From a virus (Duplodnaviria > Heunggongvirae > Uroviricota > Caudoviricetes), in IMG/VR virus record IMGVR_UViG_3300032050_000030: a stretch of 51,781 bases of DNA; one strand, given 5' to 3'. Each line of letters begins with the position of its first letter. The first letter of the stretch is position 1. Of this stretch, positions 23,556 through 38,913 are shown one piece after another. Position numbers and translations under genes: made by a program. A model generated the notes under the pieces. The model was not told the origin of the DNA, did no database searches, and was given only the letters and a program-made list of their open reading frames with translations.

Positions 23556-23572
23556 CCACCCTTTCTTATTTT
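23540..23572. terminator. Probable bidirectional intrinsic terminator
   Basis: aagggtggt-gaata-accaccctt hairpin followed by tcttatttt, at a convergent gene junction. Confidence 0.65.
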
Positions 23573-26500
23573 ATAACATCTATTACATCCTGAGTTGTTA
23601 TTGATGTGTGACATTCAAACTGTCTGTCTGTTCCCTTATGTATAGGACACCAGTTCCAATCTCCTTTATCAAACTTGAAATTGGGATTGTTCCAACATCC
23701 ATTGCATACATCTTTCTTCACCACTCTTGTACATGTAAACTCATGATCAGGTTGGGTGAAATTACTAATCATTATCACTTTTTTATCCATAGCCCATGCT
23801 AACCAGCTCAATCCTGAGCTTAGTCCTATGAAGAACTCAGAATGATGTATAACATTCATTGTGTTCTCTATAGATGTATCATCTATTTGAAGACAATTAT
23901 TAAATGGGTTCTTCTCTTTAGATACATTTATCACACCATATCCCTGTTCTACCAGATAATCAATCACTCCCTGCCATCCTTCTTTGGTCCAGAACTTACA
24001 CCCAGCTGTAGAATTTGTAGCTATGGTGACATATTTACCATATGGATTGTTACCAATTTGGTAACTTATTCTTGGTTTAATCTCTTGATAATCAAGACCT
24101 AAGATGTTAGCTGCACACTTTTGGAGGTTTACAGTGTTTGGTAAAGCTGGTTCTCTATCTGCATCATAGAACCAACCAATCTTATACATTGCGTACACAT
24201 CTGGAATTACATCTCCTGGATTTACAAACTCCAGTTCTGGATAGACGTCCTGGAATAGGAAGTTCTTGAATGTGCTCACTATTACATGGCAGTTGTGTTT
24301 CTTTTTAAACTCTAAACAATAAGGTATCCAAGCAATATTATCTCCCAGAGAGTTGCTCTCAAATGCTATGTACACTCTCCTTCCTTCTAGATTCAGAACG
24401 TTTTCATATATAAGATCGTTATTCTCCCACACTCTGGTTATCCATCTGGTAAAATAACTTCTGTTTAGTTTCACCCAGCAGTTTGGTCCTATCTCATTAG
24501 CATAATACAGAGCTCCTTTATCATCATAAAAACACACCTTGAACTTGTTTACACTTGTTCCTTTGATTTCCAGGAATGGATGTTCAACAAAGTTTTGGGA
24601 AATAGTTACATTGCTCTTTGGTTTCTGTCTTGTTATAGGCAAGGTCACTATATACTTATATAACTCATTGTGCCCCATAGCAAAATGATAGGACGTATTG
24701 TTGATGGGAACAGTGTAGTCACATATAATTGTATCCAGATCTGTATCAATTGGTTGCAGATATGGAGTGAACATATCCTCATACTGAGGAAGGTTTCTTG
24801 CTATAATTGGTAGCTGATGGGAGATTGCTTCTCTCAACACCAATGGATTACATTCCCATGTACTATTGAACATGAATACGTCAGCAGCCTCAAGGAATGT
24901 TTCTGTATCATTTCTTTCTCCCCACACTATCACATTCTTTGGAACATCTTTCATTAATGGTTCCCAGTAGTGCTGGAAGTTTGGTGCCTGGTTTCCAACA
25001 AAATGAAACATCATGTGTGGGTACTTACGAGCTATTTCTAATCCTTCACCCTGATTCTTACCTGGAGTCCATAGTCCTATATTAACAACATGTTTCTTAT
25101 CACTACTAAACCCAAGCTTCTGTCTAGCAGCCTGTCTTGTTTCAAATGATACAGGATTGATTTCTATGGGAAACTCCAATACTTGTTTGTAGCTAGGCAT
25201 GTTTGCAAATGTCTTCAGATGATGGGGGGTACAGAAGGCATATGCTTCTGGGTGGTACATCTTATGTTTGTCTGGTTCAAACCACACATTGTGACAAGTT
25301 TCTACAATTCTCCAAGTTCTGTTGTTGTCATATAACTTAGCAAGTAGATCCTGAGGTATATGATTGTAACTATCAAATCCTTCTACTATCTCATCTATAT
25401 GCACTATATCAATATTATTGTTTTTAATAATATCGATGATCTCATGTTTGTTATCTGATAAGGTGTAAAAATTATTCACCAGTTCTCTTATCTGGTTCTT
25501 CTGCACTACATATGCTGGACCATAATCTGTATATTCTACAACAAATATCTCTACGTTGCTGTATTTCTTCAGCACCTGTATACGTTTTAACAGGAATCCA
25601 GGCATACCACCTGTAGATAGGTGGGGTGCAAGGAACAGCACTTTCATAGACTTTTTCACTGTCTTTTCCAGTTCATGTATCATTTCGTGCATTACATTGC
25701 TCTTTTTCTCACCATGGAAAGCAAACAGATATTCTTTCTTAGCTGGAATCTTAAACCAGCTAGATATCTCTCTAGCTACACCAGTGAAGCCTAACTCATT
25801 ATATATCTTGTCAATAGTATCAAGTGTACCATTTACATAAACGTATGGAAGTCCTGTAAGTATTTTCTTTTTCCAAAGAAGTATATTTACAATGGTTTCC
25901 TCATGGAATGGTGCATAGTATTGAGGATTCTTCATCACCTCAGGATGCTTACACATCCAATACCACTCATCCAGAAACTTTATACAATTAGTATTGGCTA
26001 CAAAGTATCCAGTTTGTCTGTATTTGGTTCTGACGTATTGGTCTACACCAAACAACTCACATGCTGGAGCTTCTAGTGTCATGGATAAATCGTTCTTATC
26101 TTTAGCCGCACCTCTACCATTTGCAAACAAATATTCATATATCCCCTCTGTGAAATATGGATAGTCTACATTCTTTGGATAGAGGGAGAATATATTGTCT
26201 ATGTATGGAGTGACAACACTATCACTGTCTATATATGCTACAGTGCGAGCATATCCTAATGTATCTTTTACAATAGCTGGGCGTTCTATCAATAGTCTAT
26301 AAATATCACCATCTAATCTATCAATATAGTCAGATTTACTATTTGCTGACACTCTAGAGAACCAGTATCTAGTGGTAGCCCCATCTATATCAGCATCAAA
26401 GTTGATAGTGTACACCACTACGGGAATTTTGCTGAACTTATTTATAGATGCTACACAAGCTTTTGCTGTCTCCAAATAGGAAGATGTTGTACACAGGACA

Positions 26501-27024
26501 TACACCTTATCCACCATACTCTCTAACATGGAATAATATCCATAGTACTCGTTGGTGAATATAGGAGTGAGGAAAGGATATCTCTCCTTCATCACTTCTT
26601 TAGTTAAGTCTGGCTGAAGATGGGTTTCATATATATTCCCATATTCCTCCCCATCCTGCTCCATGGTGTATGGAATAGCCACCATACATTCCTTATTCCA
26701 ATAGCGTATGTTCTTAATAAGCTCCTGGGCTTTGGTGGTTTCTATATGTTCCAGAACATCTCCTAAAATAATAAAGTCGTAGTCCTTATAATCAAAATCG
26801 GTGATATCACCAATATAGACATTGTCATATTTCTGTCTCAGCTGAAACTGATTTACATACGGTTCCCATATTTCTATGGCATCCATTCTATATCCCAGAT
26901 CTCTAAGTAGGTTGGAATATGTTCCTATCCCTGGTCCAACATCAAGTATTCTCTTACTAGTGGGAACGTTCTCAATGAACCACTGCCTCACCTCATCTTT
27001 GAAAAAGTTATAACTGTTTGGCAT
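23566..27024 (-). CDS. Four-domain fusion: SAM methyltransferase + GT-A glycosyltransferase + GT4-like + TibC/Aah-type O-heptosyltransferase
   Basis: ILDVGPGIG and GDVLEH (MTase); YIDSD (DxD); KVLFLAPHLSTGG and ADVFMFNSTWECNPLVLREA (GT-B); SLGDNIAW and CNGCWN...WCP...QFEC (BAHT iron-finger Cys set). ATG 27024 is preferred over the track start 27060 because a -7 element occupies 27030-27037. Confidence 0.8.
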   Translation of the reverse strand: MPNSYNFFKDEVRQWFIENVPTSKRILDVGPGIGTYSNLLRDLGYRMDAIEIWEPYVNQFQLRQKYDNVYIGDITDFDYKDYDFIILGDVLEHIETTKAQELIKNIRYWNKECMVAIPYTMEQDGEEYGNIYETHLQPDLTKEVMKERYPFLTPIFTNEYYGYYSMLESMVDKVYVLCTTSSYLETAKACVASINKFSKIPVVVYTINFDADIDGATTRYWFSRVSANSKSDYIDRLDGDIYRLLIERPAIVKDTLGYARTVAYIDSDSVVTPYIDNIFSLYPKNVDYPYFTEGIYEYLFANGRGAAKDKNDLSMTLEAPACELFGVDQYVRTKYRQTGYFVANTNCIKFLDEWYWMCKHPEVMKNPQYYAPFHEETIVNILLWKKKILTGLPYVYVNGTLDTIDKIYNELGFTGVAREISSWFKIPAKKEYLFAFHGEKKSNVMHEMIHELEKTVKKSMKVLFLAPHLSTGGMPGFLLKRIQVLKKYSNVEIFVVEYTDYGPAYVVQKNQIRELVNNFYTLSDNKHEIIDIIKNNNIDIVHIDEIVEGFDSYNHIPQDLLAKLYDNNRTWRIVETCHNVWFEPDKHKMYHPEAYAFCTPHHLKTFANMPSYKQVLEFPIEINPVSFETRQAARQKLGFSSDKKHVVNIGLWTPGKNQGEGLEIARKYPHMMFHFVGNQAPNFQHYWEPLMKDVPKNVIVWGERNDTETFLEAADVFMFNSTWECNPLVLREAISHQLPIIARNLPQYEDMFTPYLQPIDTDLDTIICDYTVPINNTSYHFAMGHNELYKYIVTLPITRQKPKSNVTISQNFVEHPFLEIKGTSVNKFKVCFYDDKGALYYANEIGPNCWVKLNRSYFTRWITRVWENNDLIYENVLNLEGRRVYIAFESNSLGDNIAWIPYCLEFKKKHNCHVIVSTFKNFLFQDVYPELEFVNPGDVIPDVYAMYKIGWFYDADREPALPNTVNLQKCAANILGLDYQEIKPRISYQIGNNPYGKYVTIATNSTAGCKFWTKEGWQGVIDYLVEQGYGVINVSKEKNPFNNCLQIDDTSIENTMNVIHHSEFFIGLSSGLSWLAWAMDKKVIMISNFTQPDHEFTCTRVVKKDVCNGCWNNPNFKFDKGDWNWCPIHKGTDRQFECHTSITTQDVIDVIK

Positions 27025-27029
27025 ATAGG

Positions 27030-27061
27030 CAAATGTAGAAAAAATATTTGGTAGTTTCAAA
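27030..27061 (-). promoter_or_regulatory. Bacteroidota-type promoter for the glycosyltransferase fusion
   Basis: Minus strand TTTG (27061-27058), 20 nt, TACATTTG (27037-27030), 5 nt, ATG. Confidence 0.7.
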
Positions 27062-30220: not shown

Positions 30221-31561
30221 ATGGCTATAATACCTAAACAAATAGGCTGGAGCCAGGAGTCTAATCTCCTGTGGGAACTTCTTAGGAAGACTGATAGACT
30301 TATTGGTGTAACTTCTAATGTAAACACTAATGTCAACGTAGACAGTGCTATTACATTTGCTCCTTCCACATCACAGGATGCCTTTGGTAGGCTTAGAGTT
30401 TCAGAACCTCTTACAATGTTTGATTCTAGCCATAGGTTTGATGATAATGATCTTTGGTCTACAGCCACTGCTACAAGCGGTGCAGCTGTATTTAATGCTA
30501 ATCAAGGACTTGTAGATCTAAATGTTACAGCTGCTTCTGGATCTTCTGTTACAAGAGAAACAATCAAGGTGTTTGCTTATCAACCAGGTAAATCACTCCT
30601 GGTGATGAACACATTTGTAATGAGTGCTCCTAAAGCAGGTCTTACACAACGTGTTGGATATTATGGAGTTGAAAATGGATTCTATCTGGAACAAGCAAAT
30701 AGTGACATAGCTTTTGTGAAAAGAAGCTATGTAACAGGATCTGTTGTAAATACACCAGTTTTACAAGCTGATTGGAATGTAGATAAGCTTGATGGTAACG
30801 GTCCTTCAGGACTTACACTTGATCTCACCAAGGCTCAGATACTTTGGATGGATTTAGAGTGGTTGGGTGTAGGATCTGTACGTATAGGATTTGTAATAAA
30901 CGGACAGTTTATTTTATGCCATACGTTCCAACATGCTAACATCATCACTAGCACATATATTACAAGTGCATCATTACCTCTGCGTTACGAGATATTCAAC
31001 ACAGCTGGTACATCTGGAGCTAGTACATTGAAACAAATTTGTTCTACAGTGATTTCTGAGGGTGGTTATGAACTTAGAGGTGCACAGTTGTCTGCTGGCA
31101 CATCTATTGTTGCACCAAGAACCTTTGCTTTACCAGGAACCTACTACCCTATTGTATCAATAAGACTTAAATCTACAAGACTAGATGCTATTGCAATTGC
31201 AACAGCTGTTTCTATTTTAGGACTAGGTAATGGTAAAAATTACCAGTGGAGAGTGGTGAATGGTGGTGTTACAACCACTGGAGGATCATGGTTAACTGCA
31301 GCAGCTGATTCTTCCGTAGAATATAATATTACAGCCACTTCTGCATCAGGAGGAAGAGTGTTAGCTAGTGGATTTGTTAATTCATCTAACCAAGGATCTC
31401 CTTCAATTAATATTCTCAAGGAAGCTCTTTTTGCTAATCAGCTTGAAAGAAATGGGTTAACAGGCACACCTTACGAGATTGTAGTAGAAATGGCTGTAGC
31501 CACAACATCTGGTGGTGAGGGTGCATATGCTTCTATAGATTGGGAAGAAATCAGTAGATAA
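30221..31561 (+). CDS. Putative structural protein with module-B N-terminus
   Basis: Starts KQIGWSQESNLLWELLRKTDRLIGVT; beta-rich body (DAFGRLRVSEP...). Confidence 0.6.
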   Translation: MAIIPKQIGWSQESNLLWELLRKTDRLIGVTSNVNTNVNVDSAITFAPSTSQDAFGRLRVSEPLTMFDSSHRFDDNDLWSTATATSGAAVFNANQGLVDLNVTAASGSSVTRETIKVFAYQPGKSLLVMNTFVMSAPKAGLTQRVGYYGVENGFYLEQANSDIAFVKRSYVTGSVVNTPVLQADWNVDKLDGNGPSGLTLDLTKAQILWMDLEWLGVGSVRIGFVINGQFILCHTFQHANIITSTYITSASLPLRYEIFNTAGTSGASTLKQICSTVISEGGYELRGAQLSAGTSIVAPRTFALPGTYYPIVSIRLKSTRLDAIAIATAVSILGLGNGKNYQWRVVNGGVTTTGGSWLTAAADSSVEYNITATSASGGRVLASGFVNSSNQGSPSINILKEALFANQLERNGLTGTPYEIVVEMAVATTSGGEGAYASIDWEEISR

Positions 31562-31745: not shown

Positions 31746-32336
31746 ATGAGGGACTTAAAATTTATCTGTGAAGAATGGAAAATTATTCCAGAATTTGATG
31801 GATATGAAGTTAGTAGTCTAGGTAATGTTAGAGGCATAAACAGACTTAGAAAAGGTAAAAATGGACTATGTTTGCTAAAAGGAAAAGATTTAAAACAATC
31901 TTTTAATAAAAAAGGATATCCTGAGGTAAGGTTTCGTAAAGAAGGTTGTCACACTAGACTAGTTCATAAACTTGTGGCTAGTGCCTTTCTGACAAAACCT
32001 GAAGGTTGTACCCAGATTAACCATATTAATGGTGTAAAAACAGATAATAGGTTAGAAAACTTGGAGTGGGTTACTCAATCAGAAAATCAACTACATGCCT
32101 ATAAACTTGGTTTACAACCTAGTAGAGCTGGTGAAGGAAATGGTAGAGCAAAACTTAATGATGAAAAGGTTACTGCTTTAAAAGAATTATATAATTCAGG
32201 AAAAAGTATAAAAGAGATTTCTAAAATAACAAACATAAATTTATATACTGTAAGACAAATTATTTATGGACAAACTTGGAAATCAAACACTACCAAAGTA
32301 GTTAGAAGAGATGAAAGATTTAAACCAACTATATAA
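31746..32336 (+). CDS. Free-standing NUMOD4-HNH homing endonuclease
   Basis: EEWKIIPEFDGYEVSSLGNVR (NUMOD4); LVHKLVASAF...QINHINGVKTDNRLENLEWVTQSEN (HNH). Confidence 0.9.
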   Translation: MRDLKFICEEWKIIPEFDGYEVSSLGNVRGINRLRKGKNGLCLLKGKDLKQSFNKKGYPEVRFRKEGCHTRLVHKLVASAFLTKPEGCTQINHINGVKTDNRLENLEWVTQSENQLHAYKLGLQPSRAGEGNGRAKLNDEKVTALKELYNSGKSIKEISKITNINLYTVRQIIYGQTWKSNTTKVVRRDERFKPTI

Positions 32337-33364
32337 TGAGTAAAGAACTAAAATTCGTGACCGCCCAGCCCGATGATAACTATTACATCTGGCAAGTGCA
32401 CATGTGGCTAGAAAGTCTGAAAACGCTTGGACATTCTGACAAAGCTATTGTTCTTGTTTTCACTCCCAACTTCAGAGAAAGGAATCAGGAATGGAAAAAG
32501 GTTGCTGACCTCTATCCAGAAGCTGAGTTCTTTTATGTAAAGGATGAGGATGAGATTAGCCAGATGCTCAAGGTTTACATTCCTGTATTACGTCCTTATT
32601 CTCTGATGAAATACTTCCAGGCTAATCCAGATATGGTGAATAAGGCAGTGTTTTATTGTGATAGTGATGTGGTGTTTACAGAGAACTTCAATGTAGATGC
32701 TTATCTGGAAGATGATGTATGCTATCTATCAGATACAAACAGTTATATAAGTGCCTCATATTTTGACAGCAAGGTGAAGGATGTACTTCCTGACAAGCTG
32801 AAAGAATATAAAACCAGGGATGTGCTGGCAGAAGTGACCAGCATGATTGGTATAACAAGAGAGATTTGTGAGCGCAATGAGGAAAATTCAGGCGGTGCAC
32901 AGTATCTCCTGAAAAATATAGGTGCAAGTTTCTGGGAAAAGGTGTTGGGTGATTGCTTAATCATCAGAACCTATCTCAGAAATATAAATAAAGATTACTT
33001 CGAGAACGAGAGTAAAGGATATCAATCTTGGTGTGCGGACATGTGGGCTGTTCTCTGGAACCTCTGGTTGAGGGAACAAGAGACAAAGGTGATTCCAGAA
33101 CTGGAATTTGCATGGAGCTCAGATCATATATCCAGACTTGAGAGAGTGGGCATCCTGCACAATGCAGGAATTGTAGGAGATAGTCAGGGTGACATTCCTA
33201 CATTCTACAAGGGTAAATACCACACAGGGGATAATCCTTTTAAAGACCCACACATCTACGAGGTGCTTGATAGTGAGAAGAGTAGGACACTCTGCAACCA
33301 CTACTACTTAAAACAATTATTCAACATTAAAAACAAATACAATTTAGATTATGGCCACAATTAA
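32336..33364 (+). CDS. GT-A glycosyltransferase resembling peptide O-glycosyltransferases (GT95 HPAT / GT96 SGT1-like)
   Basis: YYIWQVHMWLESL, LRPY, FYCDSDVVF (DxD), WCADMWA, ILHN; order and spacing recall the Y.xWQ...DxD...W.xEM pattern of GT95/GT96. Family call by eye. Confidence 0.55.
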   Translation: MSKELKFVTAQPDDNYYIWQVHMWLESLKTLGHSDKAIVLVFTPNFRERNQEWKKVADLYPEAEFFYVKDEDEISQMLKVYIPVLRPYSLMKYFQANPDMVNKAVFYCDSDVVFTENFNVDAYLEDDVCYLSDTNSYISASYFDSKVKDVLPDKLKEYKTRDVLAEVTSMIGITREICERNEENSGGAQYLLKNIGASFWEKVLGDCLIIRTYLRNINKDYFENESKGYQSWCADMWAVLWNLWLREQETKVIPELEFAWSSDHISRLERVGILHNAGIVGDSQGDIPTFYKGKYHTGDNPFKDPHIYEVLDSEKSRTLCNHYYLKQLFNIKNKYNLDYGHN

Positions 33365-33572
33365 CAAACGCCCTCTCAAAGCTTATGTACGCTTTGATGG
33401 TTCTGGGAGAGTAGTTCCCAGCAGCCTGATCCTCAGAAGGAAGAAGCCTAAGGTGGGAAATTGGACAGAGATTCCAGCATATGAGTGCTGCAATGAAACC
33501 ACTACCACCACTACTAGCACTAGCACTAGCACTAGCACAACAACTACCACTACCACAGCAGGTCCACTATAA
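33351..33572 (+). CDS. Module-C stub protein with poly-Thr/Ser tail
   Basis: KRPLKAYVRFDGSGRVVPSSLILRRKKPKVGNWTEIPAYECCN then ETTTTTTSTSTSTSTTTTTTTAGPL. Confidence 0.8.
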   Translation: MATINKRPLKAYVRFDGSGRVVPSSLILRRKKPKVGNWTEIPAYECCNETTTTTTSTSTSTSTTTTTTTAGPL

Positions 33573-33585
33573 AATCTGACAAATC

Positions 33586-34776
33586 GTGAGTAATAAAAGG
33601 GATTTAAAAGCGTACGTTAGGTATGATGTTTTAAAAAGAGCCGTCCCTGGAAGTAATATTTTTAGCAAATATATACCAAAGATTGGTGACTGGGAAGAGA
33701 TACCAGCATACAAGTGTTGTACTACTAACACCACCACTGCTGCGCCTATTCCTTTTATAAGTGTATGGAGAACTACATCTCCTGATGAATCTGTCACCCT
33801 TCCATATAATTTGGGTGGTGTATATGTTGGAACTATTGATTGGGGTGATGGAACTGTTACAGCAAATTCATATGCTAACAGAACACACACGTATGCTGTC
33901 CCTGGTGACTACACCATCACTATATCAGGAACCACTAGAGGGTGGTCTTTTGATGTTCATGGAGGAGACCCAACCAAGATGATAAGTGTATCTCAATGGG
34001 GTAATAGATTCAGATTAGGTAATGACGGTGGTTATTTTAGTGGATGTTCAAATTTAGATTTAAGTGGTGTCACCGATATACTAGACCTAACTGCTGCTAG
34101 TAATTTATCTTTTATGTTTTTTGGTTGTTCATCATTAACAACAGTGAACAGGATAAATGAGTGGAATGTTAGTAATGTCACTAATATGGAGGGTGTCTTT
34201 TATGATGCTACTCAGTTCAATCAGAATATAAGTGGGTGGAACACTTCTAGTGTCACCAATATGACATCTATGTTCCGAAATGCTTCATTGTTTAATCAAA
34301 ACATTGGTGGATGGGATACATCTAGTGTCACAACCATGGAATCAATGTTTTTGGATGCAAGCAGTTTTAATCAAGATGTAAGTGGTTGGGACACATCAAG
34401 TGTGTTAAACATGAGACAAATGTTTGACAATTCAATCTTCAATCAACCGATAGGAATTTGGGATGTCAGTAATGTCACCAACATGAGTTTGATGTTCAAC
34501 AGTACACCCTTCAACCAAAGTATTGGTGTATGGAACACTGTTGATGTTACAAACATGTCTGGCATGTTTAGTAATACACCTTTTAATCAGAATATAAGTG
34601 GATGGGATGTTAGCAATGTCTTTAATATGGGACAAATGTTTCAAAACGCAACAGCATTCAATCAAGATTTAAGTGGATGGTGTGTAACAAACATTCCTTC
34701 AACACCTACAGATTTTGCTACAGGTGCAACAGCGTGGGTGTTACCTAAACCAGTGTGGGGAACATGTCCTCCATAA
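33586..34776 (+). CDS. Module C + PKD-like + DUF285/BspA-type repeats
   Basis: GTG start; IDWGDGT (PKD-like); about seven W(D/N)(T/V)S(S/N)VTxMxxMF...FNQ repeats. Confidence 0.8.
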   Translation: MSNKRDLKAYVRYDVLKRAVPGSNIFSKYIPKIGDWEEIPAYKCCTTNTTTAAPIPFISVWRTTSPDESVTLPYNLGGVYVGTIDWGDGTVTANSYANRTHTYAVPGDYTITISGTTRGWSFDVHGGDPTKMISVSQWGNRFRLGNDGGYFSGCSNLDLSGVTDILDLTAASNLSFMFFGCSSLTTVNRINEWNVSNVTNMEGVFYDATQFNQNISGWNTSSVTNMTSMFRNASLFNQNIGGWDTSSVTTMESMFLDASSFNQDVSGWDTSSVLNMRQMFDNSIFNQPIGIWDVSNVTNMSLMFNSTPFNQSIGVWNTVDVTNMSGMFSNTPFNQNISGWDVSNVFNMGQMFQNATAFNQDLSGWCVTNIPSTPTDFATGATAWVLPKPVWGTCPP

Positions 34777-34794
34777 TAATTAAAACAAAAAGCA

Positions 34795-36333
34795 GTGGCA
34801 AATAAAACAGATTTAAAAGCCTATTTGAAATATGATGGATCTGGCAAGATGATTCCTGGTAGTCTCATCTTGAGTAGATCTAAACCTAAAGTGGGTGATT
34901 GGTCAGAAATTGATGCCTATAAATGTTGCAATGGACCAGCACCAACAATTTGCTCTAATTTCTGGATTAATCAAACAGTTAATTCAGAAAGTGCAGATAC
35001 TCTTTATGCTTTAGGATCTGCAATAGACTCCAATTGTAATTCATTCATGTTGATGGTTGACTATTGGCTAAGTCCAAACAATCCCAACCAAAACTCTTAT
35101 GTAAACTCTTTATTACAAAAGTTTAACGATGCTGGTGAGTTAGTTTGGAGTAGAACGTTTGATTTTGCAGAGAACGGTACAAGTCTATATATAGAAACTG
35201 AAACTATTGCTATAGATAAAGAGGATAATCCAATTTGTTTTTTTACTGTTTATGGTGGAGAACTTGATATTCTTACTACAACTGCTATTACAAAATTTGA
35301 TAACGATGGCAATGAGTTGTGGTCTATTGTTTTAGATAGATCTGTTTATAGTGCTAATATAGAATATGTTGAAAGTGTAGCATTTGATGCAGCTAATAAC
35401 ATGTATGTTTCTTTTCTTATTCAACCTCTTGGTGGTATTGGTAATAATATTGTAATTGTTAGAAAAATTAGTCCAGCAGGCGTAGTGTTAGCATCAAAAA
35501 CTGTAACATTTATCGATAATGTTTTTAGCCCTTTAATAAATGTAAATTCTGCTGGGGAGGTATATTTAGTTTGTACCACTCCAGATACTGATAAAAGTTA
35601 TATTGTAAAATTAGACTCCTCATTAATTGAGATTTGGAATAAAAGTTTTTCAGCAGGTAATCTTTCAGGTGCATATGGTATTGCGTTTGATAAAGATGAG
35701 AATATAGTGCTTCAAATAGGAAATGGGGCCAACCAATCATATTATTCTAACCCTTTATATGGAGCATACATAAAGATGTCTCCCGAAGGAAATGTTATTT
35801 GGACTACTAAAATAAGCAACATCAATACTATATATGGTAATGAGTATGTTCTAGGAACCTTTCAACTTAATTCTGATGGTGATGGAAATATTTATATATC
35901 CTCATATCTTCCAAATACACCAATTCCAGGATACACTTTAACTTATAGTAGTTCTCCGTTAATAATAGCTAAGCTATTATCAAATGGATCTTTTGAATGG
36001 GCGTATATAATAGAAAGTCCTAATGATATAGCTGGTTATTTTTGGGGAAGCCCTATAGTGGGAAATTTGGTGAACAACTCTCTTGTTCTTGCATTCTATG
36101 ATAACACTGATCCGTATAATGCTCAGCTTTTCAAACTCCCATTAACTCCTGTGGCTGATGGTGTATACGGTAGTTACAAATTTACAGACATCACTAACTT
36201 GTGGACAACATCAAGTCCCACACCTACATTTATTGATAGTGTAGCAAATTATTATGATGTACCCACAACTGTAATACCAATAACCTATCTAACATTTGAA
36301 GGAACCTACACAACAATAAACACACCATTATGA
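34795..36333 (+). CDS. Module C + beta-propeller-like domain
   Basis: Repeats IAIDKEDN, VAFDAANNMYV, IAFDKDENIV, LNSDGDGNIYI with KFDNDGNELWS-type strands. Confidence 0.7.
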   Translation: MANKTDLKAYLKYDGSGKMIPGSLILSRSKPKVGDWSEIDAYKCCNGPAPTICSNFWINQTVNSESADTLYALGSAIDSNCNSFMLMVDYWLSPNNPNQNSYVNSLLQKFNDAGELVWSRTFDFAENGTSLYIETETIAIDKEDNPICFFTVYGGELDILTTTAITKFDNDGNELWSIVLDRSVYSANIEYVESVAFDAANNMYVSFLIQPLGGIGNNIVIVRKISPAGVVLASKTVTFIDNVFSPLINVNSAGEVYLVCTTPDTDKSYIVKLDSSLIEIWNKSFSAGNLSGAYGIAFDKDENIVLQIGNGANQSYYSNPLYGAYIKMSPEGNVIWTTKISNINTIYGNEYVLGTFQLNSDGDGNIYISSYLPNTPIPGYTLTYSSSPLIIAKLLSNGSFEWAYIIESPNDIAGYFWGSPIVGNLVNNSLVLAFYDNTDPYNAQLFKLPLTPVADGVYGSYKFTDITNLWTTSSPTPTFIDSVANYYDVPTTVIPITYLTFEGTYTTINTPL

Positions 36334-36725
36334 GTAATAGAAGAGACCTTAAATCTTATATTAGATATGACGGATCTGGTAGAGTGATTCCAGGAAGTAA
36401 TATTCTTAATAGGTTTAAGCCAGGTGTAGGCAATTGGAAAGAAATTAATACTTACGAATGTTGCAACCCCTTACCTCTACCCTCAAACTGTATTGAGTTT
36501 GTTGTAGACACTACAGAGGGTACATTCTTTGGTTTTAGTTTTACCACTACAGGACCTATCAACTTCACTGTTGATTGGGGTGATGGTACTACACATGTAG
36601 ACGCAGGATTTGGTGGATATGATTATGAAGAACATACTTTTCCAGAGTCTGATACCCAGTACACTGTTAGAGTGTGCTTTGATGATATAAATAGTGTTAT
36701 TGAATTTACCTCTTCACCTGATTAA
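36330..36725 (+). CDS. Module C + PKD-like domain
   Basis: RRDLKSYIRYDGSGRVIPGS...YECCN; FTVDWGDGT...EHTF...YTVRV. Confidence 0.75.
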   Translation: MSNRRDLKSYIRYDGSGRVIPGSNILNRFKPGVGNWKEINTYECCNPLPLPSNCIEFVVDTTEGTFFGFSFTTTGPINFTVDWGDGTTHVDAGFGGYDYEEHTFPESDTQYTVRVCFDDINSVIEFTSSPD

Positions 36726-36734
36726 ACTTAAAAC

Positions 36735-37325
36735 ATGGCACAAATAGTATCAATAACAGGCTTACAGAATCTTGTAAACCTACAAAGAATTTATATAGAT
36801 TGGAATAGTTTTCAATCTGTTAATTTGTCCAATCTTCCTAATCTAGTAGAGGTTGACATTAGTGACTGTGATATTCCTGGAACTAACACTAGCAGTTTAA
36901 CATCTGTTAACTTTTCAGGATCTACAGCCATTCAGCAACTTCGTCTTGATGATAGCAACTTCTCTGGAGGAGTTCCTAATTTATCAGCGCTCACTGCTCT
37001 TGAAACATTAGACTTAGACCAATGTGATATTTCTGGTGTATTAGATCTTTCTGGACTTACATCTTTGATTAATTTAGACGTGTCTGGAAATCTAGCAATG
37101 ACATCAGTGGTAATAGCTGATTCACAACCTATTACAGACTTTAATGGAATTGAGTGTGCTTTAACAGAAACAGCTGTAGATGACATTCTTGTTGTATTAA
37201 GCAACAATGGTCAGGCAGGTGGAAATGTTGATCTTTCTGAGGGAACAAGCGCTCCTCCAAGTGCTACAGGACTAGCTGCAAAAGCTGTTCTTGAGGGCAA
37301 TGGATGGGTAGTGAATGTAAATTAA
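36735..37325 (+). CDS. Leucine-rich repeat protein
   Basis: LQNLVNLQRIYID, LSNLPNLVEVDIS, LSALTALETLDLD, LSGLTSLINLDVSGN. Confidence 0.75.
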   Translation: MAQIVSITGLQNLVNLQRIYIDWNSFQSVNLSNLPNLVEVDISDCDIPGTNTSSLTSVNFSGSTAIQQLRLDDSNFSGGVPNLSALTALETLDLDQCDISGVLDLSGLTSLINLDVSGNLAMTSVVIADSQPITDFNGIECALTETAVDDILVVLSNNGQAGGNVDLSEGTSAPPSATGLAAKAVLEGNGWVVNVN

Positions 37326-37748: not shown

Positions 37749-38029
37749 TGCAATTACACAGAAAGTTCTTTCCTCCTGTAATGCAGGATAACGAACTAGC
37801 ATATTTCTCTCATCTACAGGGTGTAATAGACTCTGTAGATGAGCTTTCAATATTGGAAGTGACAAAGCACCCTAATGCATACCATTTTAGGCTTGCTCCC
37901 TCCCTTCCAAAATACAACCAATTATTGCTGGAAGAAATATTAAAACTCCATAACCTATTACAAATTAAATTGAATTTGTCAAAGAGCATAAAAAGCTCAG
38001 CAACAATTGTTTTTGAAATAGAAATATGA
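37748..38029 (+). CDS. Hypothetical protein (93 aa)
   Basis: Coupled ORF in the operon. Confidence 0.55.
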   Translation: MQLHRKFFPPVMQDNELAYFSHLQGVIDSVDELSILEVTKHPNAYHFRLAPSLPKYNQLLLEEILKLHNLLQIKLNLSKSIKSSATIVFEIEI

Positions 38030-38913
38030 AAAACCTAATACTTATTGTATTATTAATTGCTTTACCGTTTTCCTGTCAAAAGGAACCTAGTAGAGTTATT
38101 TATCCTCCAGAAATTTGTAACTTTGGAGAATTGGATAATGCTGTATATCCCAGAGAGGAGTTTGAACTTGCCAGATCTGGATCTGTACGTATAAAAGATT
38201 CAGATAGAGATGGGGTGGCTGATAATATAGATAACTGTCCCAGAAAAGCCAATGCTGACCAAAAGGACAGTGATGGAGATGGTATAGGAGATGTCTGTGA
38301 CAGCTCTCCTTTCTCTGTACCAGTGACAACACAGGGTGTAATTCTTCTAGATTTTGATGGGTATTATTTAAATAGTCCATCCTGGAACAATGGTATTCCT
38401 ATTCAGTGTCAGCCTAGTGGTCTCTATCCAGCAGATGTACAAACAATATTAGATAGTGTATCCAAAGACTACAATAGATTCAATCTTATTGTCACTACAG
38501 ATGAGAACGTATACAATGCTGCCAATAGATATAAAAGAATGAGGATCGTTGTTACAACATCGAGTGAGATATATCCAGGGGTGGCAGGTATAGCATATAG
38601 AGGAAGTATGTTCTGGGGAAGCGAAACTCCAGGATTTGTATTCTCCAACACCATGTCATTTAATCCATTGAGAATCAGAGTGACTGTTTCCCATGAATCT
38701 GGACATACAATAGGCTTACAACATCAGGCCCAATATGACGCAAACTGCAATCTACTATATACATATAAACCATGTGACTACCTATCTGGACCTATAATGG
38801 GATCTATAGGAGGTAATTGTCTTCCTCTCTGGTGGGTGGGACCAACTCCTACAGCATGTACAGATATACAGAATGACAGTGCTATAATTAAGGCTAATGT
38901 AGGGGTAAAATAA
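38026..38913 (+). CDS. Lipoprotein with thrombospondin type-3 repeats and a metzincin protease domain
   Basis: Lipobox-like LPFSC; DSDRDGVADNIDNCP...DSDGDGIGDVCD; HESGHTIGLQH (HExxHxxGxxH) with a downstream PIMG Met-turn. Confidence 0.8.
   Translation: MKNLILIVLLIALPFSCQKEPSRVIYPPEICNFGELDNAVYPREEFELARSGSVRIKDSDRDGVADNIDNCPRKANADQKDSDGDGIGDVCDSSPFSVPVTTQGVILLDFDGYYLNSPSWNNGIPIQCQPSGLYPADVQTILDSVSKDYNRFNLIVTTDENVYNAANRYKRMRIVVTTSSEIYPGVAGIAYRGSMFWGSETPGFVFSNTMSFNPLRIRVTVSHESGHTIGLQHQAQYDANCNLLYTYKPCDYLSGPIMGSIGGNCLPLWWVGPTPTACTDIQNDSAIIKANVGVK

Follow-up and report, generated by a model that had tools for sequence, protein, structure and literature searches.

An N-terminal head domain on tandem phage genes with exchangeable cargo, and its possible role in docking to the particle

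Introduction

N-terminal anchors are known from phage T7 gp17, the head-binding domain of the P22 tailspike and the adenovirus fibre tail. In the crAss-type phage PhicrAss001, the tail fibre gp22 docks to the tail hub through its residues 1-26, and two head fibres occupy pockets of the capsid hexons: gp21 (97 amino acids, aa), a trimer bound via residues 1-38, sits in the planar pockets, and gp29, a dimer bound via residues 1-58, in the winged ones, while disulfides staple the virion (PMC10172136). Few phages are as abundant as the crassviruses and the relatives that these have in water. Recognisable head-fibre genes are absent from most crassvirus groups, which lack homologues of gp21 and gp29 and in which the authors of that structure expect uncharacterised analogues (PMC10172136). 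Here we describe a locus of the IMG/VR virus record IMGVR_UViG_3300032050_000030, a caudoviricete sequence of 51,781 nucleotides (nt) that we call the window. Four consecutive genes on its + strand, named here by their first positions (33351, 33586, 34795 and 36330), open with a common N-terminal head of 46-48 aa and continue as different proteins. That phage fibres share N-terminal anchors is known; this head family and its gene array are new. With our judgement evenly balanced between yes and no, we propose by analogy that the head may serve small fibre or decoration proteins as an N-terminal module for docking, and that the array may be a swappable display set.

Results

One head opens four consecutive genes

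The aligned heads of the four window proteins have 17 invariant columns, and the identity to the first head is 59-67%. A hidden Markov model (HMM) of the four heads, scanned over all six frames of the window, scored 100-108 bits in these four frames and 7.6 bits in the next one. An earlier, sequence-only reading of the window had proposed that the same head opens four tandem genes, and this is what we find: the open reading frames lie where it placed them and the heads fit the motif it described. Nucleotide identity between the heads is 0.59-0.67, and identical residues use the same codon in only 35-54% of cases. On these figures the heads are old paralogues kept by protein-level selection, not recent copies. 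The sequence 5' of the head-gene starts is A/T-rich and has no Shine-Dalgarno motif, as is typical for Bacteroidota. None of the heads read, in the window and in related loci, starts with a hydrophobic signal peptide.

The first of these genes (33351..33572, + strand, 73 aa) encodes a type I head (33351-33494), whose loop RRKKPKVG is basic, and behind it nothing but a Thr/Ser tail with the ending T7-AGPL, T7 being a run of seven threonines; the poly-Thr continuation noted in the sequence-only reading is thus plainly visible. The other three, also on the + strand, carry type II heads and larger cargo. Gene 33586..34776 (396 aa, head 33586-33723) continues with a PKD-like segment and DUF285 repeats, gene 34795..36333 (512 aa, head 34795-34932) with a beta-propeller of the SBBP/DUF5122 type, and gene 36330..36725 (131 aa, head 36330-36467) with an 80-residue beta-sandwich.

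The head is a previously undescribed domain family

A profile search for the head over 1.84 billion representative proteins, clustered at 50% identity, retrieved 902 clusters at a threshold of E<=1e-3 and 609 at one of E<=1e-10. Nearly all family members begin with the head at their residue 1. We inspected the best 150 representatives of the 902 clusters (P0001-P0150), among which no Pfam family is common to all; the commonest, LRR_5, occurs in 5. Searches of Pfam and PHROGs over residues 1-48 of the four window proteins gave no match, and the 73-aa stub matches nothing at all. The head profile had no match among PDB chains, an Atlas feature search on the head gave no usable match, and tblastn of GenBank phages with the head found none, so that the family has no cultured member there.

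AlphaFold2, given a 148-row alignment, models the head as a three-stranded mini-domain with a predicted local distance difference test (pLDDT) score of 85.8. Compared with this model, neither the PDB (Foldseek, best E 2.8) nor the AlphaFold DB clusters (best E 0.58) held a relative, nor did a wide VIA-align comparison (best Z 2.4). The search of BFVD returned a single match, itself a homologue, an uncharacterised protein of Virus NIOZ-UU157, and the literature mentioning 'NIOZ-UU' viruses held no functional information. A complex prediction with three head copies, run without controls, scored 0.03 and returned no answer. Taken as a whole, the head is a previously undescribed domain family.

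Most head-family proteins are 55-150 aa long, and the cargo reaches 1292 aa. Across the family it comprises LRR_5 (leucine-rich repeats, LRRs, of the BspA type), DUF285, LRR_4/8, PKD-like domains, PQQ/SBBP propellers, Lcl_C, Ice_binding, Fib_succ_major, Peptidase_S74 and further beta-sandwiches. The sequence-only reading had suggested a search of viral metagenomes with a head HMM for the cargo repertoire, and the repertoire recovered indeed consists of many unrelated cargoes of the adhesin or fibre type. In one member (L010), a type I head and a short poly-Thr lead straight into Peptidase_S74, a tail-fibre intramolecular chaperone. The boundary between head and cargo is a conserved ECCN. Two tandem heads precede the cargo in 13 of the 150 representatives, which is the behaviour of a structural module rather than of a cleaved signal. 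It is, as expected of an anchor module, a strictly N-terminal conserved part on paralogues whose C-terminal parts are unrelated. Some short members (L004 778, L043 6920, L063 6426, L013 1553, L050 6228 and P0003) end not in poly-Thr but in a double motif of ~25 residues, of the type LLLE(D/N)G...LLQE(D/N)...ILL.

Conserved aromatics and a Cys pair in a small beta-domain, then a Thr-rich linker, then variable domains: this order recalls the CBM1-linker-enzyme layout of fungal proteins. The head could accordingly be a small ligand-binding module that sends soluble, lysis-released proteins to a host glycan or matrix, off the particle, and the tandem duplication of the head would suit this, being common in binding modules driven by avidity. 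We nevertheless think it rather unlikely. The cargoes are themselves binding domains, not enzymes; the head is strictly N-terminal and one member carries the S74 fibre chaperone; and the genes lie within the late structural block of a phage type known for N-terminal plugs. Nor was a carbohydrate-binding module among the Foldseek PDB or VIA-align matches of the head model, none of which was significant.

Arrays occupy one slot and follow a fixed order

IMG/VR gave at least 145 head matches, and we fetched 80 of these loci (L001-L080). In all 80 the heads make up arrays of 1-4 genes, always in the same syntenic slot, and five complete genomes (114-119 kb) have 2-4 heads each, all within it. A homologue of gene 32336 stands directly upstream of the array in 78 of the 80 loci and mostly ends 5-25 nt before the first head, and homologues of 37338 (DUF5856) and 37748 follow downstream. 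The array closes the late block; before it come genes for collagen-like fibres, an endolysin-like gene and the gene of a phrog_1645 virion structural protein.

Short genes in tandem that keep the N-terminus, vary in their Cys/Thr-rich C-termini and have a putative modifying enzyme beside them are also what precursors of ribosomally synthesised and post-translationally modified peptides (RiPPs) would look like, the head being the conserved leader and the C-terminus a core modified by the neighbouring enzyme. This is highly improbable here. No leader peptidase, exporter or transporter was found among the conserved neighbours scanned, and the boundary is ECCN, with no cleavage motif of the double-glycine type. 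Folded repeat-domain cargo of up to 1292 aa and proteins with two heads fit such precursors poorly as well, and on the grounds of these large cargoes, the two-head proteins and the scanned neighbours we regard the possibility as essentially excluded.

A tree of 156 heads places the basic-loop type I apart from type II, the deepest fork being weakly supported. Of the 89 type I rows, 78 stand first in their array, and of the 67 type II rows, 64 stand second or later; mapped on the tree, the first-position label changes 6 times, against 46.7 times for shuffled labels. The head of 33351 groups with first-position heads of other genomes and is 94% identical to the one in L001. The type I gene is usually only a poly-Thr stub, and type II genes carry stubs or cargo. 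These arrays are best explained as a hypervariable display locus whose genes keep to a fixed grammar: a single stub gene of type I opens it, and one or more type II genes follow. The window obeys it with one type I stub and three type II genes with cargo.

A comparison with L007 shows how the cargo changes. Its upstream gene is 92% identical to that of the window, and its third head gene matches 36330 over only the first ~53 residues, after which a different repeat domain follows. Cargo is thus replaced as a whole at the boundary of the head, near-identical genomes included.

The CC pair at this boundary is kept in at least 90% of the 150 representatives. Being nearly invariant, it might form an inter-chain cystine knot, for which collagens offer a comparison, and the head would then be an oligomerisation domain only, with any attachment located elsewhere in the protein; the trimer-specific S74 chaperone directly after head and poly-Thr in one member points the same way. 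Several divergent members among the two-head proteins have, however, lost the pair, the stubs have no other part able to attach, and mere oligomerisation leaves the fixed order of the two subtypes unexplained. We give this possibility a slim chance.

Three further observations concern the surroundings of the array. An HNH/NUMOD4 endonuclease gene (window 31746-32336) lies between the stub labelled module B and gene 32336; since only a subset of the related genomes has it (L018, L024, L031, L036, L063 and L069 among them), it looks like a mobile insertion. The virion structural protein at window 30221-31561 has cyanophage and Puniceispirillum phage HMO-2011 homologues (about 62% identity) that align only from residue ~45; its IGWS-type N-terminal head is by this comparison lineage-specific, which fits N-terminal heads as lineage-specific adaptors. 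The motif TAnnTTTG, which we take to be the Bacteroidota -7 promoter type, occurs at window 13263 and 30206, 13 and 15 nt before the starts of 13276 and 30221. It has no match before the head array, and two well-placed matches in the window are too few to interpret.

The phage lineage points to crAss-like viruses of Bacteroidota

A 2246-aa protein of the window matches virion RNA polymerases of Cellulophaga phage phi14:2 (gp66) and of crAss-like phages of Bacteroides and Flavobacterium. In a complete relative (G005), terminase, portal (phrog_6547) and capsid protein (phrog_11589) follow each other in crAss-like order, and PhicrAss001 gp20 and gp32 belong to these same two PHROGs. Single-sequence searches of the five complete genomes with PhicrAss001 gp32 and gp36 returned nothing, the capsid link running only via PHROG profiles, and the Pfam families Phage_sheath_1 and Phage_capsid had no match in related genomes. 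The best cultured-phage matches of the RecA-like and 32336 proteins belong to Chryseobacterium phage MA9V-3. Finally, a head-bearing contig (L082, JBBAJS010000010.1, 111,986 bp), which is probably a phage contig, was binned in a metagenome-assembled genome of Sediminibacterium (Bacteroidota), a weak hint at the host. The RNA polymerase, the portal and capsid PHROGs, the MA9V-3 matches and the Sediminibacterium bin together argue for a crAss-like lineage with a host that is probably a member of Bacteroidota, likely one from fresh water or the sea.

Thr7 linkers and the glycosyltransferase-like gene 32336

Many head-family members carry Thr tracts after the ECCN boundary. Across the proteins of L001-L080 and P0001-P0150, 170 runs had a length of 7, 33 of 6, 41 of 8 and 1 of 9, and the usual spacer between T7 runs is VAP or AAP. 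A T7-x-P ending also closes the window stubs 13276 and 31577, which bear two other, unrelated heads, and T7-AAPIL ends a 376-aa protein in the head-gene block of G005 (L087:6718-7848). The latter protein is placed where PhicrAss001 has its auxiliary capsid protein gp36, with a pairwise similarity that is not significant (E 0.19).

Gene 32336 (32336..33364, + strand), which overlaps the first head gene by 14 nt, matches phrog_4417 at 1.5e-54. Its product has an invariant D-x-D (D109, D111), and an Atlas feature search with it leads to HPAT/GT95, DUF7164 and GT6; it had no match in Pfam, or in the PDB by single sequence or profile. A glycosyltransferase-like enzyme class is therefore a lead, not a result. 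The window also encodes a methyltransferase-GT1-GT9 fusion at 23566-27060. In mycobacteriophages, according to Freeman et al. 2023 as cited in PMC12619734, capsid and tail-tube subunits carry O-glycosylated C-terminal extensions. Given the D-x-D and the Atlas leads of 32336, the fusion and these glycosylated virions, it is reasonable to suppose that the Thr7 tails are O-glycosylated; protein glycosylation by phage-encoded enzymes has a candidate acceptor in the Thr7-xAP unit.

If so, the head might be nothing but a leader-like recruitment domain for the 32336 enzyme, marking T7 units for O-glycosylation and binding no virion. The gene stands directly upstream in nearly all loci and here overlaps the first head gene by those 14 nt, the first array gene is usually a mere head with a poly-Thr tail, and runs quantised at seven suggest a measured acceptor unit. 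Yet T7-x-P tails are also found on 13276 and 31577, which have two other heads, and on the 376-aa protein of G005, and none of these lies beside the enzyme gene; the tail itself is the likelier recognition element. Many head proteins, moreover, have no poly-Thr, a T5 run being present in only 64 of the 150 representatives, and the class of the enzyme is itself only a lead. On balance we consider recruitment of this kind an unlikely role for the head.

Cargo of the window proteins

The sequence-only reading had assigned PKD and DUF285 repeats to 33586, a beta-propeller to 34795 and PKD to 36330, with an LRR gene after the array. For 33586, DUF285 stands (Pfam, 4.5e-68), whereas the PKD match, at 19.5-20.6 bits, stays below the Pfam gathering cut-off of 27. 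Pfam is silent on 34795, for which the propeller is backed by an Atlas model: residues ~52-512 superpose on SBBP/DUF5122/NHL propeller clusters with template modelling (TM) scores of 0.66-0.78, many of these clusters being surface proteins of Bacteroidota that carry type IX secretion tails. The assignment of PKD to 36330 did not hold, as neither Pfam nor Foldseek identified it there. This cargo is a confidently modelled beta-sandwich (pLDDT about 90) with a WGDGT motif, PKD-like at most. It has a TM score of about 0.5 to a domain that precedes LRR_5, DUF285 or BACON in Bacteroidota surface proteins and putative phage tail proteins.

The LRR gene is indeed present. It has no head, lies at 36735..37325 on the + strand, encodes 196 aa and matches LRR_4 at 4.2e-08. 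Because it is in the same frame as 36330, separated from it by two stop codons (TAA ACT TAA), because a fused head-sandwich-LRR protein of 317 aa exists (P0028), and because the same split occurs in L017 and L033, there in different frames, we take 36735 to be the distal part of the cargo of 36330, split off from it. Its occurrence in L017, L033 and the window indicates that the split form seems to be tolerated, possibly as a two-chain assembly.

Beyond the array, window 38026-38913 encodes a lipoprotein-like phage protein with an N-terminal signal and Cys. It matches a thrombospondin type 3 repeat (1.9e-08) and, weakly, a metallopeptidase of the reprolysin/M12 type, all below Pfam cut-offs.

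Discussion

The arrangement that we propose would work as follows. Late in infection, the head proteins would be synthesised in the cytoplasm, and the head would fold as a three-stranded basic mini-domain and plug into a repeated site of the particle. The remainder would project outward on a linker of T7-xAP units, probably O-glycosylated by the adjacent glycosyltransferase-like enzyme, and would present either a bare (glyco)Thr brush, in the stubs, or an exchangeable ligand-binding domain. By analogy with the two PhicrAss001 head fibres, the likeliest socket would be the hexon pockets of the capsid, with the tail hub as second choice; we hold the capsid to be a somewhat more likely docking site than the tail. 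We favour docking because the size of the proteins, the N-terminal place of the head, its two kinds, the lack of fold relatives and the position near lysis genes all match gp21 and gp29. The cargoes, being adhesin, surface or fibre-type domains, are in line with display.

The sequence-only reading had likewise envisaged a plug-and-socket display, in which the heads would bind one site that the cargoes compete for or share. Display is partly supported, by a discrete, always N-terminal module, by swapped cargo, by the lack of a signal peptide and by the PhicrAss001 precedent: the modular build and the rapid exchange of cargo are shown, and the socket is proposed by analogy. The single site fares less well: given two head subtypes in fixed order, the one site may instead be two docking sites or a hetero-assembly. 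A bolder version, which we think unlikely though worth stating, would have the two subtypes plug the two classes of hexon pocket, so that the capsid is coated with O-glycosylated Thr7 'mucin' brushes and exchangeable adhesins. Exchange at the array would in that case reset what the entire surface of the capsid adheres to, making the array a hot-swap locus.

Several points weigh against docking of the head on the particle. Comparison by hhalign of the head with gp21, with gp29 and with an alignment of the gp21 N-terminus gave probabilities of 0.2-0.9%, so that no homology was detected, and none of PDB, AlphaFold DB, BFVD or VIA-align offered a fold relative of the head that would point to a binding mode. 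Downstream of the array, DUF5856 and small basic proteins have no obvious structural character. Presence of the head proteins in the virion is putative, and the tight coupling to gene 32336 fits an enzyme-recruitment tag equally well. Cargo of up to 1292 aa, finally, exceeds any known crassvirus head fibre. Single-sequence searches of the five complete genomes with gp21 and gp29, a weak test, also found nothing. Residues 31-38 of gp21 and 35-42 of the head, NGEWETIG and VGNWTEIP, have G-x-W-x-x-I in common at the end of both modules, a resemblance that is not significant (hhalign 0.9%).

Whatever its function, the head makes a clear-cut candidate for a new domain family. Should it prove to be the attachment part that is missing, a widespread 46-residue module, with over 900 clusters, would fill the head-fibre gap of the crassviruses. 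Phages could then change the stickiness or shielding of their surface and leave capsid and tail genes alone, and the head would offer a small, natural tag by which proteins could be displayed on particles of this kind.

The closest described systems remain gp21 and gp29. Both have been seen bound to the capsid; for the head proteins such binding is proposed. The phages are of crAss type in each case, with the same portal, capsid and RNA polymerase families, and the proteins are small, about 100 aa in PhicrAss001 and mostly 55-150 aa here, where larger cargoes also occur. A short N-terminal part (38-58 aa in gp21 and gp29, 46 aa here) precedes a small distal domain on a flexible connection, a domain that only some of the family have here, each phage has two kinds, and the N-terminal parts have no known fold relatives. 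Like gp29, which adjoins the lysis genes in PhicrAss001, the heads are encoded near such genes. They differ from gp21 and gp29 in coming as arrays of 1-4 genes, in their exchangeable cargo, which reaches 1292 aa, and in having Thr7 linkers and the conserved CC pair.

Two other comparisons are more distant. As in the mycobacteriophages of the account cited above, glycosyltransferase genes (here the fusion at 23566-27060 and 32336) adjoin structural genes with Ser/Thr-rich tails; unlike in that account, the tails here are quantised T7-xAP units on separate small adaptor proteins, with glycosylation that we infer. With the anchors of phage fibres and tailspikes, such as PhicrAss001 gp22, the head shares a conserved N-terminus before unrelated C-termini, recombination at the boundary and, in one member, the S74 chaperone. 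It differs from most fibre anchors in being much shorter, in often having only poly-Thr behind it, in its tandem duplication and in its two subtypes with their fixed order.

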